This document shows positions 35,744-41,511 of a DNA stretch of 64,000 bases, one piece after another; the stretch's first letter is position 1, and every line of letters starts with the position of its first letter. The position numbers and the translations under genes are program-made. The stretch spans positions 61,993 to 125,992 of the forward strand of contig JAXMNT010000020.1 in NCBI GenBank assembly GCA_034670305.1, written 5' to 3'. The notes under the pieces are model-generated. The model worked only from the letters and a program-made list of their open reading frames with translations, did no database searches and was not told the origin of the DNA. Origin of the DNA: Deltaproteobacteria bacterium (GTDB taxonomy: Bacteria > Myxococcota_A > Polyangia > Polyangiales > Houyiibacteriaceae).

Positions 35744-36119
35744 GGAAGGGGCCCTCGCACGCCGGGGAGACTCGAGCAAGGGAGGGGGTGGGGAGAGGAG
35801 GCTCACCCGGCGGCGAAGACCCGTTCGATCATTGGTACGCCCACCGGTCCCAAGCGTTACCTGCCACCCGATCGGACAGCGCGAGGTCCGAAGCGCACGC
35901 CGCCCACCTGGCACGCAATGCCGCGGGTACGCAAAGAATGCGGCGCCTGGTGGTTCGATCCAACGACGGATCCCGCACATTCGGCCCCGACAATTCGCGA
36001 TCTCCCATGTCGAAGAGAGGTCCGAAAATTGCAGTCCTGCGCTAGAATGATGGGGTGGTGACGCAGACGCGAACCACGTTCAGGATCTTTGGGACGCAGT
36101 TCGCGTCCGCATCGTTGGC

Positions 36120-39100
36120 TTGGGAGGCAAACGCGTGGGTTTCATGAAGTCGGTTCGGTTGGGTTCGCAGAGTTTGACGAACGCTGGGGTGCTCGCCATG
36201 GCGGCCGTGGTGGGGATCGGTTTGCTGCCAGCCGAAGCCTCCGCCCAGACGGCGATCAAGCCGTACTTCATGGTGATCTTCGACGACTCCGGATCGATGG
36301 GGTCGTCGACGGGCAGCGGCAACAACAGCTGCGGTCGGCCCCGCACCCGCATCAACGACGCGAAGTGCGCGCTCCAGTCGGTCGTGAGTGCCTTCGGTGA
36401 CGTCACCTTCGGGCTCACCTCGTTCAAAGAGTACGGCACCGGCACGACGATTCACGTCGGCATCATGGAGGACAACCAGGACGCCATCGTCTCCTGGGTC
36501 GACTTCACCGGTAGCCCAGAACTCGTCGACAGCGGCACGACGCCGATCCGCGACGCACTCGACGACGTGCGCGCCTACTACCAGAGCGCCAGTGGTCCGG
36601 TCCGAGCCAACGGCGGCGACCCCGCCCGCGGCTGCCGCCCCTACTTCGTCATTCTCCTCCACGACGGTGAACCGTGTTGCGACGGTCGAAACAGCCAGGC
36701 CAACACCGTGGCGGCCGCGACCCGTCTCCGCGACACGCCCATCGCCGGGGGCCCCAACGAAGACATCCGGACCCACGTCGTCTTCTTCGGGTCGTCGCCC
36801 TCCGGTCTCGCGACCCAGGCGAACCAGATCGCCGCGGCCGGTGGCACCGGTGCCGCGCAGCCCGCGAGCGACGAAGAGTCCCTCGCCATCGCCTTCGCGA
36901 ACATCATCAGCGACTCGATCCTCACCGAGACCTGCAACGGCGACGACGACGACTGCGACACCCTCGTCGACGAAGGCTTCCAGAAGTACTGCGACATCGA
37001 CGGCGTGTTCGGCGCGCCGACTTCGGATCCCCGCGCCTACTGCAGCGACCCCGGCGACGACTGCGACACGAGCGACGACAACTGCTTCGCCGGTCTCACC
37101 GACCAGCCGGTCAACGCGTGCGGCGTGTGTGGCCCGGTGCCGACTGAAGTCTGCGACCGCGTCGACAACAACTGCAACGGGCTCATCGACGAAGGCGACG
37201 TGTGCATGGGCTGTATGCCCACCGGCGCAGAGACCTGCGACGACCGCGACAACGACTGCGACGGCACTGTCGACGAAGGGCTCATGCGCGGCTGCGGCAG
37301 CAGCATCGGCGCATGTATGGCGGGGACCGAGACTTGTATGGCGGGTGTGTGGACCGGATGCACGGCGACCACCGGTGGACCCGAGACCTGCAACAACATC
37401 GACGACGACTGCGACGGGCGCATCGACGGCATGAGCCGTTCGTGCGGCACCGACGAAGGCGCCTGCCGCGCGGGCGTCCAGGTCTGCACCTCGGGGTCGT
37501 TCGGCTCGTGCATCGGACGGGTGGGCCCGAGCCGCGACATCTGCGACGGCGACGACAACGACTGCGACGGCCGCATCGACGAAGACGACCCGGACGTCGG
37601 CGACAGCTGCGGCGACGGCACCGGCGAGTGTTCGCCGGGCACGATCATCTGCAGCGCGGGTGCGCTCGTGTGCGATGGCGCCATCGGCCCGACCGCCGAG
37701 ATCTGCAACCTGCTCGACGACGACTGCGACGGAGTGGTCGACGACGGCCTCGGGGTCGGGGCTCCGTGCGGAAGTGACGTCGGTGTCTGTCAGCCGGGCG
37801 TGAATGTCTGCCGAGACGGCGCGACGATCTGCGAGGGCGAAGTCGGCCCGATGGCCGAGAACTGCAACTCCATCGACGACGACTGCGACGGGACGATCGA
37901 CGAAGGTCTCGGCATCGGAAGCGCTTGCGGCGCGGACGAAGGCCTGTGCATGGAGGGCGTGCTCCAGTGCGTCGAAGGGCGCGAGACCTGCGTCGGCGAA
38001 GTGCCGCCCGGCATCGAGTCGTGCGACTGCGAGGACAACGACTGCGACGGCGCCATCGACGAAGAAGCAGACGGCGCGCTGTGTCCCGGCGACTCGGCGT
38101 GTGTCAGCTGCCAGTGCGCCCTGCCCTGCGGCATGTCCGAGTTCGGCTTCATCTGCCCGACTGGACGCGCGGCCGAAGTCCAAGACGACGGCATGTGCTT
38201 CTGCGTACGCGAGGCCTGCAACAACGAGCTGTGCGCCGGCGAGACGATCGAACGCGACGACACCGTGCGCTGCGGACCGGGTACGGACGTTCCGAACTGC
38301 TCGTGTCGCGGCAACGCCTGCACCTTCCCGTGCGAAGGCGTGACCTGCACCGAAGGCACCGTCTGTGAGGCCTTCACCGGGACGTGCGTCGAAGACAGCT
38401 GCCGCGGCCTGGGATGCCCGGCGGGCGAACTCTGCGACGTGCTCACCGGCGCATGCGAAGCCGACCCCTGCGCCGACACGATGTGCGCCGCAGGTCAGGC
38501 GTGTCGCGCCGGCACCTGCATCGGCAGCTGCGCGGGTGTGATGTGTGGCTCCGGTGAACGCTGTCGCGCCGGCGCGTGCGAGGCGGACCAGTGTTCGGAC
38601 GTCAGCTGCGCCCGCGGCGAGGTCTGCGACCCGGCCTCCGGCGACTGCGTCGACGACATGTGCGACACGGTGCGCTGCCCGAACGGAACCGTCTGCGAAG
38701 GCGCGACCGGCGAGTGCGTGCCCGACCCGTGCGTGGGCCTGACCTGTCCGGACATGCAGATCTGCATCGATGGCGACTGCTTCGACGAGGACGAGGGTGT
38801 GGACGCCGGTCCCGGTGTCGACGCGGGGCCGGGCGACCCGGCGCAGCGTGTGCTCGCGGGCGGCGGTGGTGGCTGCGCTTGTGAGGTCGGCGAACGTCCG
38901 GCAGACGAACTTCCGGCGGGCCTGCTGGGTCTGCTGGGCCTTCTCCTCTTCGCCCGCCCGCGGCGTTCTGCCAGCGGCCGGAGGCCAAGAAAAAAAGCGC
39001 CGCGCTCTGAGGCTGCAACCGCAGCGCTCGGGGCGGGTTCGGCCCTGCGACATGTCGCTGCGCTCCTTCTGAGCGTTGCGCCCGCCGCCGGGATCGCAAC

Positions 39101-41183
39101 CGCCGCGTCTCTCAGCACCGGCTGCGACGTCGAGCCGTTCTGCCTGAACTGCGAAGACGCGATGGTCGACGCCGGTCCCACGGTGGACACTGGGCCGCGT
39201 CCGGACGTGCCCTTCCCCGACACCGGCTCGATCGACGTTGGGCCCGACACCAACGAGGACGCCGGCTGCGCCGAAGGCCGCGCCGAGCTCTGCAACGACT
39301 TCGACGACGACTGCGATGGCACGGTCGACGAAGGCATCGACACGAACACGGACACCGAGAACTGCGGCGGCTGCGGCGAGCTCTGTGCGCCGCCCGGCGC
39401 GTTCGCCCAGTGCGTTGACGGCGTGTGCGGCATCGACCGCTGCGACGTCGGTTTCTTCGACAGCAACGGCGACCCGTCGGACGGATGCGAGTACGCCTGT
39501 CTCCCGAGCGGCGTCGACGATTCGGTCTGCGACTTCCGCGACAACGACTGCGACGGAGAGATCGACGAAGACTTCGACTTCACGACCGACCCGGCCAACT
39601 GCGGCAGCTGCGGCCGCACCTGCTCGTTCGCCCACGGCGCGGCCACCTGTGCCGACTCCGCCTGCGTGCTCGGCGACTGCGAAGCCGGCTACTACAACCT
39701 CGACGGCGTCGATGCGAACGGATGCGAGTACGCCTGCACCGTCGCGGACCCGGCGGTCGAGACCTGCAACCGGCGCGACGACGACTGCGACGGCACGGTG
39801 GACGAAGGCAACCCTGGGGGCGGCGGAAGCTGCGGCATCGGCACCGGCGCATGCACCACCGGCACCGAGATGTGTTCGGCCGGCCGCATCGTCTGCAACG
39901 GCGCCGTCGAACCGGCGACCGAGGTCTGCAACATGTCGGACGACGACTGCGACGGAAGCACCGACGAAGGTTTCTTGAGCAACGACATCAACAACTGCGG
40001 CATGTGCGGCAACCGGTGCATGTTCGAGAACGCCTTCGCCCAGTGCAACGCGGGCTCCTGCGAGTTGGTCGTCTGCGAAGACGGCTTCTGGGACGCGAAC
40101 ATGGACCCGTCGGACGGCTGCGAATACGCCTGTGAGTTCAGCGGCGCCGAAGCCTGCAACGGCAGCGACGACGACTGCGACAACGTGGTCGACGAAGACC
40201 TCTCGCCGCCCAGCAACTTCTGCAACCCGAACGGCGTCTGCGCTTCCGCGACGGTCCGCTGCGACCCTGGGATGGCCCGGTTCGTCTGCGACTACCCCGC
40301 GACCTACGAAGAGACCGAGACCCTCTGCGACGGACTCGACAACGACTGCAACGGGCTCGCCGACGATCCCTTCCTGAGCATGGGCCTCGGCACGAGCTGC
40401 AGCAACGGCGTCGGCGCGTGTCAGCGCTTCGGCTCCGTGGCCTGCACCCTCGACCGGCGCGGCGTCGCCTGCAACGCGCCCCTCGCCGGATCTCCGGGCA
40501 CCGAGATCTGCGACGGCATCGACAACGACTGCGACGGAGTCCGAGACGAACCCCAAGGCGCGCCCGGAACCAACCCGAGCTACGTCGTCGAGCCCATGGT
40601 CCAAGTGACCCAGGGCGGCGCGAACTTCTACATCTACCAATACGAAGCTTCGCGCCCGGACGCGACCTCCAGCAACGCCGGCGCTTCGTCTGCCCGCAGC
40701 TGTTCCCGCGCGGGCGTGTTGCCCTGGACCCAGCTCAGCCACACGGAAGCGAGCGACGCCTGCGCCGCCGCAGGCATGCGCCTGTGCACCGAGTCCGAGT
40801 GGGAGCGCGCCTGCGAGAGCTCGAGCGGAAGCTGCCAGTGGGCCTACAGCGCGAGCTGCGGCACCTACCAGGCCAACACCTGCAACGGAAACGACTACGA
40901 CCCGATCCCCGGCGCCCCCGACGACGACCAAGTCCTCGCCACCGGCGCACTGGCCGCCTGCTACGCCTCCCACGGCGGCGGCGCATCCAACCGTATCTTC
41001 GACCTGAGCGGCAACGTGAAGGAATGGACCGAGGCCCGGAGCGCCGGCGTCAACCCGCTCCGCGGCGGCAGCTACAACAACAGCCGCCTCGGCCTCCGCT
41101 GCGACTTCGACTTCACCGTCGCCGACGACGACTTCCAAATCGCCAACGTCGGCTTCCGCTGCTGCTCGACCACCGCGCCGTAA
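36120..41183 (+). CDS. large Cys-rich surface protein: VWA-like domain, CDGxDNDCDG repeats, internal MYXO-CTERM-like segment, second repeat block, FGE-sulfatase-like domain
   Basis: signal peptide; FDDSGSM (MIDAS-like); many CxxxDxDCDG repeats; [20 protein letters not shown]; start may be 36144 or 36198. Confidence 0.9.
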
Positions 41184-41204
41184 CCGGCTGAGTTCCAGAG
41201 ACCG

Positions 41205-41239
41205 CGAAGAGAGCTGGGCCCACGCCCGGCTCTTCTTCG
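41205..41239 (+). terminator. candidate intrinsic terminator
   Basis: CGAAGAGAGCTGGGC-CCAC-GCCCGGCTCTTCTTCG shortly after the stop; weak U-tract. Confidence 0.45.
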
Positions 41240-41261
41240 TTGTGGGCGGCCGGTGGCATCG

Positions 41262-41511
41262 CGTCGGCATCGGCTCCGGCGTCGGCCTCGGATTCGGCGT
41301 CGGGTTCGGCTTCGGCGTCGGCTTCGGCTTCGGCGTCGGCTTCGGCTTCGGCTTCGGCTTCGGCTTCGGCTTCGGCATCGGCATCGGCTTCGGATTCGGC
41401 ATCGGCGTCGGCGTCGGCTTCGGCTTCGGCTTCGGCTTCGGCTTCGGATTCGGCGTCGGCCAGATCATGAAGGGGCAAGGGCAGGGGCAAGGGCAGGGGC
41501 AAGGGCTGGGG
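41262..41511. repeat. TCGGNN hexamer array followed by a GGGCAA/GGGGCA array
   Basis: directly visible upstream of gltA. Confidence 0.9.

Follow-up and report, generated by a model that had tools for sequence, protein, structure and literature searches.

A fused two-module gene with an internal sorting tag

The window analyzed here is a 64-kb (64,000-nucleotide) stretch of contig JAXMNT010000020.1 in assembly GCA_034670305.1 (positions 61,993 to 125,992, forward strand), from a Deltaproteobacteria bacterium placed in the family Houyiibacteriaceae of the order Polyangiales. One of its genes encodes a putative surface protein in which two modules are fused in a single reading frame, and directly behind the sorting tag at the end of the first module lies a candidate programmed -1 ribosomal frameshift site, the subject of this report. 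The gene and its protein-level features are as follows, with positions counted from the first letter of the window.

36144..41183, + strand: coding sequence of the fused two-module surface protein, from the list of open reading frames (ORFs) and the translation; the ORF is open from TTG 36120
38865..38966, + strand: internal MYXO-CTERM tag, residues 916-949, with the GGGGGCAC motif, a hydrophobic helix and a basic cluster
39045..39125, + strand: lipoprotein-signal-like segment ending at the lipobox Cys (TGC 39123-39125), from the codon listing and alignments
40707..41165, + strand: FGE-sulfatase (SUMF1-like) domain at the end of module 2, residues 1530-1682 (Pfam PF03781, E = 3.1e-09)

The ORF at 36120-41183 spans 1687 amino acids (aa), with its likely start at ATG 36144 (MKSVRLG...) and a signal peptide ending ASA-Q, and Pfam places in it seven MopE-type Cys-rich motifs and the C-terminal FGE-sulfatase domain. 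The internal tag scores 21.3 bits against NCBIfam model TIGR03901 (cut-off 20), and its GGGGGCAC motif is kept in an alignment of 11 homologues. MYXO-CTERM tags are expected at a C-terminus; in the zero-frame product 738 residues follow this one, and in a -1 product it would be C-terminal, the protein ending 14 residues past the model match. Between the basic cluster of the tag and the signal-like segment lie 40 loop residues, after which the segment ends STG-C and continues DVEPFC. Its lipoprotein-like features (basic n-region, hydrophobic h-region, lipobox Cys) can be read directly from the sequence, and its position is internal, with no start codon of its own, rather than N-terminal. An internal start for module 2 was considered and ruled out, as no in-frame ATG, GTG or TTG occurs between the slippery heptamer described below and the lipobox Cys. 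The two helices and the positive loop between them would form a membrane hairpin, leaving both modules outside.

The candidate frameshift cassette

The elements of the cassette fall within the loop and the start of the signal-like segment follows shortly after them.

38980..38984, + strand: Shine-Dalgarno (SD)-like GGAGG, read from CGG AGG, its 3' end 5 nt before the heptamer
38990..38996, + strand: slippery heptamer A_AAA_AAA in the zero frame (AGA AAA AAA), from the sequence and the ORF phase
38997..39002, + strand: spacer GCGCCG, 6 nt; three weak extra pairs can lengthen the stem down to 38999
39003..39035, + strand: RNA hairpin of 14 bp with one bulge and an AACC loop, folding energy -23.8 kcal/mol
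39008..39010, + strand: TGA in the -1 frame, four codons past the shift site; product end ...RKKSAAL

A preliminary description of this DNA had placed the A7 run, spacer, hairpin, GGAGG and TGA at these positions, and a check of the sequence found all of them exactly there. The A7 stands in X_XXY_YYZ phase because the gene frame starts at 36120: the zero frame reads CGG AGG CCA AGA AAA AAA GCG (the run covering residues R957, K958 and K959) and the -1 frame AAA AAA AGC GCC GCG CTC TGA, giving ...KKSAAL*. The dnaX-like layout that it had recognized, namely an in-frame heptamer and a spaced hairpin, is present, and a slip would, as it had claimed, leave a short form with a normal C-terminal anchor, the -1 frame continuing from the MYXO-CTERM tag to ...RKKSAAL*.

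The hairpin contains 10 G-C, 2 A-U and 2 G-U pairs, and its stem begins 6 nt past the heptamer, inside the interval of about 5-9 nt sought for a stimulatory stem-loop. It ranks first in stability among the 1677 33-nt windows of the 5-kb gene (mean -8.4, standard deviation 3.5 kcal/mol). The sense-strand fold of 38997-39040 reaches -29.2 kcal/mol (z = -3.46; 1 of 200 shuffles equals it), and the opposite strand -19.8 kcal/mol (z = -1.32; 22 of 200 shuffles as good). The earlier caveat that hairpins are common in GC-rich DNA was therefore too modest for this one.

Since the fold is exceptional on the sense strand only, it appears to be a feature of the sense-strand RNA, which speaks against reading it as an intrinsic terminator of the minus strand, where a hairpin followed by T7 would end antisense transcription. 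The minus-strand geometry does invite that reading: the extended stem ends 2 nt before the T7, 4 of the 23 other genome runs of at least 7 (taken as T-runs) directly follow a strong hairpin, and a terminator scan lists a small minus-strand terminator-like site here. Nevertheless, the two G-U pairs of the 33-nt stem become C-A mismatches on that strand, and there is no minus-strand gene, the antisense ORF being a GC artefact and the neighboring genes lying on the + strand. We give this explanation next to no credence.

The genome (7.93 Mb, 68.1% GC) holds 14 A-runs and 10 T-runs of at least 7, with about 17.5 expected per base type. The A7 at 38990-38996 is one of these 24 and the sole A/T run of at least 7 in the window, so the remark that A7 is rare holds for the window, but runs of this length are no scarcer than base composition would lead one to expect. 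One study, from which the assembly may derive, includes four sequencing runs that each gave one contig over 38500-39500 with 0 differences and 0 gaps. All four contigs read A7, making A7 the DNA consensus, and the A-run length check proposed in the preliminary description thus came out as A7 without an indel, although reads assembled into contigs hide rare A6 or A8 variants.

These observations bear on the possibility that the A7 acts through slippage of RNA polymerase, yielding A8 or A6 mRNA, or through replication slippage, with phase variation between fused and module-1-only forms. An A8 allele or mRNA would yield exactly ...KKSAAL*, and passages of PMC4066793 report that AAAAAAA is under-represented in all three frames of E. 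coli genes, for which its authors suggest transcriptional slippage or indels. The bacterial cases cited in passages of PMC5009743, however, have runs of 9 and the run here is 7; the four per-run assemblies list no indel, with the reservation about rare variants just given; slippage of this kind needs neither a hairpin nor a particular phase; and it cannot act at the A4 and T4-T6 heptamers of the 22 other junctions that share the -1-stop signature described below. Polymerase slippage therefore seems to us very improbable.

A second copy of the 76-nt cassette was sought in the genome and none was found; the cassette is not a repeat or mobile element. A search of 38800-39200 with Rfam cmscan brought no family near its gathering score (best 16.8 bits against a threshold of 70), so the resemblance to the dnaX element is one of layout, not descent. 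The genome carries four tRNA-Lys genes with anticodon CUU and two with UUU, and AAA is read by the minor tRNA-Lys(UUU).

The tag/signal junction across Polyangiales

Matches occur in 33 of 41 related genomes, the best of them covering the entire 367-aa query across the junction with no stop. The 11-homologue alignment runs in one frame through the motif, a helix, RRRR, a variable loop, a second helix and G-C-D-V-E/D-P-F/Y-C, and a profile of 28 junctions matches 88 of 301 genomes of the order (a tally that includes the unpublished genome G194, from which no sequence was taken), with a stop inside only 6 of the matches listed. The in-frame tag/signal junction is thus widespread in the order and is neither an assembly error nor a recent accident. 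Searching 88 genomes of the family at the DNA level yielded no match better than about 70% identity, and that over short pieces. The sole close relative encountered, a metagenome contig of 1051 nt (L143), is 92% identical over residues 50-154 of a module-2 query and starts after the junction.

Two arrangements of the halves coexist. Of the 41 junctions in an initial census, 32 had their two halves in a single frame (one of them with an in-frame TGA followed by ATG, and one doubtful) and 9 had gene 2 in the -1 frame. Where there are two genes (n = 13), the boundary is ATGA in 11 and GTGA in 2, and in 9 of the 13 a GGAGG stands 5-6 nt before the ATG or GTG of gene 2 as its ribosome-binding site.

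The present genome has a two-gene paralogue on the same contig (C20:22678-22979), about 39 kb before the 64-kb window, with an ATGA overlap: the TGA that closes gene 1 (...ARRRRGVR-TGA) shares bases with the ATG of a lipoprotein gene that begins MNRMLLALVAVGGLLVLSSC-DTDPYC, and the segment equivalent to the internal signal is there a true N-terminal signal, MNRMLLALVAVGGLLVLSSC. Two more fused paralogues lie elsewhere in this genome, one without a heptamer (contig C29) and one with C_CCA_AAA (contig C3). Among the relatives, locus L013 (G028:C163:13262-14756) has its halves in the same frame, split by GGAGGGGAG-TGA-GCC-ATG, a two-gene form with no change of frame. At locus L022 (G036:C25:67206-68667) four elements were found by eye to be spread over three different frames: the tag helix, a canonical A_AAA_AAG with a TGA three codons later, the second hydrophobic segment and the lipobox. 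The gene may be broken or may use a two-step recoding, or the assembly may contain an indel.

Slippery heptamers at fused junctions

We collected 133 unique fused junctions, including metagenome loci, with a looser detector, and scored heptamers of the form X_XXA_AAR or X_XXT_TTN in a window 60 to 10 codons before the lipobox Cys. These scored windows hold 24 heptamers in the zero frame and 2 and 1 in the other phases; outside them, 71,702 codons of the same sample hold 29, 10 and 7 by phase. Resampling of synonymous codons with the windows' own usage predicted 3.10 +/- 1.73 in-frame heptamers, with a maximum of 9 in 1000 runs. The enrichment recurs in each part of the sample: 9 heptamers at 39 junctions of the first set (odds ratio 20), 9 at 68 junctions of a second genome set (odds ratio 7, P = 1e-4) and 6 at 26 metagenome junctions (odds ratio 22). 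In earlier, smaller samples, an in-frame X_XXY_YYZ occurred, at varying places, in 6 loops of the first 11 homologues; 31 fused junctions had 7 heptamers in 579 loop codons and 8 in 23,235 codons elsewhere; and at 30 junctions, with a slightly different loop cut, 7 were seen where resampling from loop usage predicted 0.88.

The codon pairs that make up the heptamers are scarce elsewhere in these genes. Gly-Lys is written GGA-AAA in 7 of 13 cases in the loop and 0 of 47 outside, Pro-Lys is written CCA-AAA in 3 of 4 and 0 of 15, and Pro-Phe is written CCT-TTY in 14 of 20 and 19 of 127. The base that opens the heptamer matches as well, with G before all 7 GGA-AAA pairs and C before all 3 CCA-AAA pairs. 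Every one of the 11 A-type heptamers ends in AAA and none in AAG. More broadly, 11 of 15 Lys AAA codons come after an A-ending codon, and AAG comes after Arg and Ala codons, with only 3 of 25 following A. By the rules set out in passages of PMC5009743, AAA would be the expected shift codon, as the minor tRNA-Lys(UUU) could re-pair perfectly one base back, and the AAA endings fit a genome with separate tRNA-Lys(CUU) and tRNA-Lys(UUU). On a FastTree tree the heptamer state changes at least 13 times.

Association with -1-frame stops

The -1 frame closes within the stretch from 45 codons before the Cys to 2 codons past it at 21 of 23 heptamer junctions, compared with 22 of the 110 junctions that lack a heptamer (odds ratio 42, P = 1.2e-10). 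Stops in the +1 frame were not linked with heptamers (17 of 23 against 65 of 110, P = 0.24). All 24 heptamers have their -1 stop within 41 codons, and 22 have it within 28; for comparison, the -1-stop distance across 6650 in-frame positions of the family's loop windows has a median of 58 codons, with 2.3% of positions within 4 and 13% within 20. In many cases (7 of 11 A-type junctions, 10 of 13 T-type ones) the stop is made at the lipobox itself, where the Cys is written with the rarer codon TGT; the next codon is mostly GAC, and GAA or AAC in two cases, and the -1 frame reads TGA. TGT stands at the lipobox in 26 of the 122 junctions without an A-type heptamer. The -1 tails are all rich in Arg and Gly and not hydrophobic, so a shifted product would keep a normal positive cytoplasmic tail.

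Other sources of this link were considered. Base composition was rejected as a confounder, because heptamer loci have a higher background GC content at third codon positions (GC3) than others (0.909 against 0.876) and every GC3 tertile shows the link by itself (P = 0.025, 2.4e-4 and 9e-7); the background density of -1 stops is equal in heptamer and other loci. Redundancy is not the explanation either, since the link survives collapsing into clusters (17 of 19 against 18 of 83 at 70% identity; 7 of 8 against 9 of 52 at 60%), and it is separately present in the sets of 39, 68 and 26 junctions. A relic of an old stop was also rejected: by our reasoning, the stop of a two-gene ancestor would fall in the +1 frame once the genes were fused, and +1 stops show no link.

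A broader objection is that the cassette features are incidental to a fast-evolving loop selected for charge only, where codon usage is relaxed and any slipping is noise; at this gene, AAA-AAA after AGA, and Ala, Arg and Gly codons that happen to pair into a hairpin, would both be chance. The loop certainly looks relaxed. Its GC3 lies below that of the rest of the genes (0.737 against 0.858 at 30 junctions; 0.768 against 0.870 in the replication set), and several rare codon kinds are enriched in it. The genome's A/T runs of at least 7 are not above expectation, the A-run is not conserved, 110 of the 133 junctions do without a heptamer, and the locus-wide hairpin minimum falls in the loop at 5 of 31 junctions, heptamer or not, where 1.3 are expected. 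Yet the resampling null, with its 3.1 predicted heptamers where 24 are seen, already takes the relaxed usage into account, and noise predicts neither the 24:2:1 phase bias, nor a stop link specific to the -1 frame, nor AAA after GGA, CCA and AAA with AAG after Arg and Ala codons. It is also unlikely that, by chance, one of only 24 such runs in the genome would coincide with the most stable hairpin of its gene at a distance of 6 nt. We accordingly regard an incidental origin as unlikely, though it is the rival that deserves the most attention.

Hairpins, SD-like motifs and rare codons

The best hairpin starting 3-10 nt past the heptamer averages -20.3 kcal/mol over the 24 sites, compared with -16.4 kcal/mol over 110 pseudo-sites, which are distance-matched positions in junctions without a heptamer (P = 0.0018). 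The hairpin of the window gene, at a percentile of about 0.008-0.017 in its own locus, is among the clearest in the family. An SD-like 4-mer lies 5-22 nt upstream of 14 of 24 heptamers and of 10 of 110 pseudo-sites, and anywhere in the scored window at 21 of 23 heptamer junctions and 62 of 110 others. SD elements stimulate frameshifting from a distance of about 10-14 nt, with a spacing of about 10 in dnaX; in the other family heptamers the SD-like 4-mer starts 9-21 nt upstream. Beyond the heptamers, loop windows (for instance 38950-39045 in the window gene) are enriched in AGG/AGA, CGA, GGA, CCA and TTT codons, and this rare-codon, low-GC3 character may reflect relaxed selection or a translational pause.

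A pause could in fact be the whole purpose of these elements. On this account, translation would be slowed by the SD-like motif, rare codons and hairpin as soon as the tag helix has been made, allowing the first helix to insert and the second to be targeted; slipping would be unwanted, and the early -1 stops would be damage control. AGG and AGA Arg codons make up 24 of 204 in heptamer windows and 37 of 836 in others, SD-like motifs and hairpins are enriched as a pause would have them, and selection against long junk tails would be expected to bring early -1 stops. What a pause does not call for is the heptamer: rare codons suffice, without an X_XXY_YYZ pattern in a single phase, and selection against slipping should purge such sites, yet they stand about 8-fold over expectation, down to the matching first base (7 of 7 GGA-AAA after G, 3 of 3 CCA-AAA after C). 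A programmed pause without programmed slipping is, in our judgment, improbable.

A model for the cassette and the points against it

Taken together, the layout at the window gene and the family-wide signature suggest that the cassette is probably, if by a modest degree, a dnaX-like programmed -1 ribosomal frameshift site whose product is module 1 on its own. Module 1 would comprise the signal peptide, a von Willebrand-type (vWA) region, Cys-rich repeats and the MYXO-CTERM tag, and module 2 the lipoprotein-type signal, Cys-rich repeats and the FGE-sulfatase domain, the two being joined by the tag helix, the basic cytoplasmic loop and the signal helix. Ribosomes that stay in frame would make the fused protein, which may then be cut at the tag by a myxosortase and processed at the lipobox by Lgt and LspA, presumably giving two lipid-anchored pieces in a 1:1 ratio. 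Some ribosomes would pause while AAA-AAA occupies the P and A sites; as causes we propose the hairpin, which begins 6 nt further on and would be hard to unwind, and the decoding of AAA by the minor tRNA-Lys(UUU). The paused ribosomes could slip one base back, read SAAL and stop at the TGA at 39008. Their short product would be module 1 with an ordinary C-terminal MYXO-CTERM tail, leaving more of module 1 than of module 2. The residues specific to the shifted form come after the presumed myxosortase cut and may be degraded. Nowhere but in this loop would a -1 stop leave module 1 whole and with its normal tag. That slippage occurs, the level it reaches, the processing of the fused protein and any benefit of the ratio are what we infer from this arrangement, and the same holds for the idea, put forward in the preliminary description, that slippage sets the ratio of the two modules. 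The simplest account of the comparative data would be that part of the family uses -1 frameshifting and that the window gene carries the most canonical cassette in it.

A number of observations weigh against this reading. The organism is known from an assembly only, and among the sequencing runs checked for the locus no RNA run is listed. As to conservation of the A-run, which the preliminary description had named as a check, A7 is absent from all 132 other fused junctions, and what is enriched at the family level is equivalent in-frame heptamers, present at varying positions in 23 of the 133 junctions. As the closest proteins are 57% identical and the closest metagenome locus spanning the junction 68%, with no junction-spanning relative above this range, conservation was examined at the family level only. 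The 110 junctions without a heptamer imply that the family can do without it. When 41 new junctions were first used to replicate the enrichment, with a strict regular expression for the tag and a loop that ended 16 codons before the Cys, it did not appear: there was 1 heptamer in 758 codons, compared with 12 in 17,887 (P = 0.42). The wider 60-10 codon window was picked after that failure, which is a weakness of the larger count. A phylogenetically paired test gave 4 pairs on supported branches and was not significant, being underpowered; since relatives are not independent and this test is small, shared ancestry may contribute to the enrichment.

The stimulators and the organism raise further points of the same kind. 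Only 6 of the 24 heptamers have a downstream hairpin within the best 5% of their own locus. The GGAGG of the window gene ends 5 nt before the heptamer, which is shorter than the dnaX spacing, as the preliminary description had already cautioned; because GGAGG serves as the ribosome-binding site of gene 2 at the same distance in the two-gene relatives, it may be a relic here. The genome's own dnaX (contig C50, 13585-15711) has no in-frame slippery heptamer, only one off-phase CCCAAAC, so E. coli-type tau/gamma frameshifting is not expected and the organism offers no positive control of its own. In E. coli, moreover, A_AAA_AAA is less shift-prone than A_AAA_AAG, according to passages of PMC5009743.

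Comparison with known systems

The mechanism itself is of a known kind, with precedents in dnaX, copA and cso2. Like dnaX, the window gene combines an in-frame A-rich heptamer, a nearby downstream stem-loop, an upstream SD-like element and an early -1 stop, and its shifted product would be the N-terminal part of the full-length protein. It differs in having A_AAA_AAA instead of A_AAA_AAG, in its GGAGG, 5 nt upstream where that of dnaX lies at about 10, and in belonging to another gene family with no sequence relation in Rfam. Passages of PMC5009743 put the share of ribosomes that shift in E. coli dnaX at 50%, with termination after one further codon. Passages of PMC4066793 include A_AAA_AAA, C_CCA_AAA, C_CCU_UUU and U_UUU_UUC among the motifs that shift at above 0.1% in E. 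coli with no stimulator present, and describe a cluster of insertion sequences with A_AAA_AAA and a stem-loop as a proven frameshift case.

The likeness to E. coli copA/CopA(Z) lies in a chromosomal, non-mobile membrane-protein gene with a short N-terminal -1 product. The copA shift site, C_CCA_AAG, is close to the C_CCA_AAA of three family members. Unlike the short form of copA, which is a cytosolic chaperone domain, the one predicted here is a complete exported module with a sorting tag. Passages of PMC5009743 give the products of the efficient copA shift as 70 aa and 834 aa, and describe a frameshift predicted in cso2 (CsoS2, carboxysome) of 79 of 162 species, which appears without a 5' SD stimulator. 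The present family resembles cso2 in having long and short forms in only part of its members (heptamers in 23 of 133 junctions), although the proteins are unrelated and cso2 has no membrane context. Few non-mobile genes on bacterial chromosomes are known to undergo -1 frameshifting; the same passages name dnaX, copA and cso2.

Internal MYXO-CTERM tags have a precedent as well. Passages of PMC11980579 describe ORFs with an internal tag as rare and sorting tags as working in mid-protein, and regard MXAN_5598 as possibly a fusion of two genes resembling TraA and TraB, whose ORFs overlap. As with MXAN_5598 and Myxococcus xanthus traA/traB, in-frame fusions and ATGA-overlapping pairs both occur in the present family; unlike in MXAN_5598, the tag here precedes a lipoprotein-type signal and not a beta-barrel/OmpA part, and the fused junction is common in the order (88 of 301 genomes) and not rare. 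The passages of PMC11980579 on internal tags mention no frameshift, and no search aimed at frameshifting was made in that source. Our literature search found no paper joining programmed ribosomal frameshifting with myxobacteria, and none that combined frameshifting, a slippery site and truncation with the cell surface and a sorting signal.

On this basis we put forward, tentatively and as something a little short of probable, that a large family of surface-protein genes in Polyangiales has solved the boundary between a MYXO-CTERM-tagged and a lipoprotein module in three interchangeable ways: by an ATGA overlap, by an in-frame fusion cut at two lipidation signals, and by a fusion with a -1 frameshift. 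In the third, the heptamer would be written in the genome's rarest codons and the -1 stop would often sit inside the lipobox. Such a family would be the first in which frameshifting is tied to sorting signals, and it would belong to the very few non-mobile gene families of bacteria in which -1 frameshifting recurs. If programmed slippage is indeed at work, about 19 sequence clusters of one family, from at least three families of the order, would join the known -1 frameshift genes. Frameshifting would have a new use, namely to determine whether the protein stops at a sorting tag or continues via a membrane hairpin into a second lipid-anchored module, and a single mRNA would thereby supply two surface components in a set ratio. 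Cultured relatives offer a way to test the signature, because proteins of the family are on record for the cultured Sandaracinus amylolyticus. It also counsels caution in annotation, since each ORF of the family is annotated as one protein, with labels like 'vWA domain-containing protein', 'MopE-related protein' or 'SUMF1/EgtB/PvdO family' enzyme.

Other features of the locus

An antisense ORF of 1808 aa (36042-41468, - strand) spans the whole gene and starts with a Pro-Lys/Pro-Thr dipeptide repeat. We rejected it as a gene, as it looks like an antisense artefact of GC-rich DNA. At 41209-41234 (+ strand), 26 nt past the stop of the fused gene, lies a terminator-like stem of 11 pairs with a T-rich tail, which may end the transcript.

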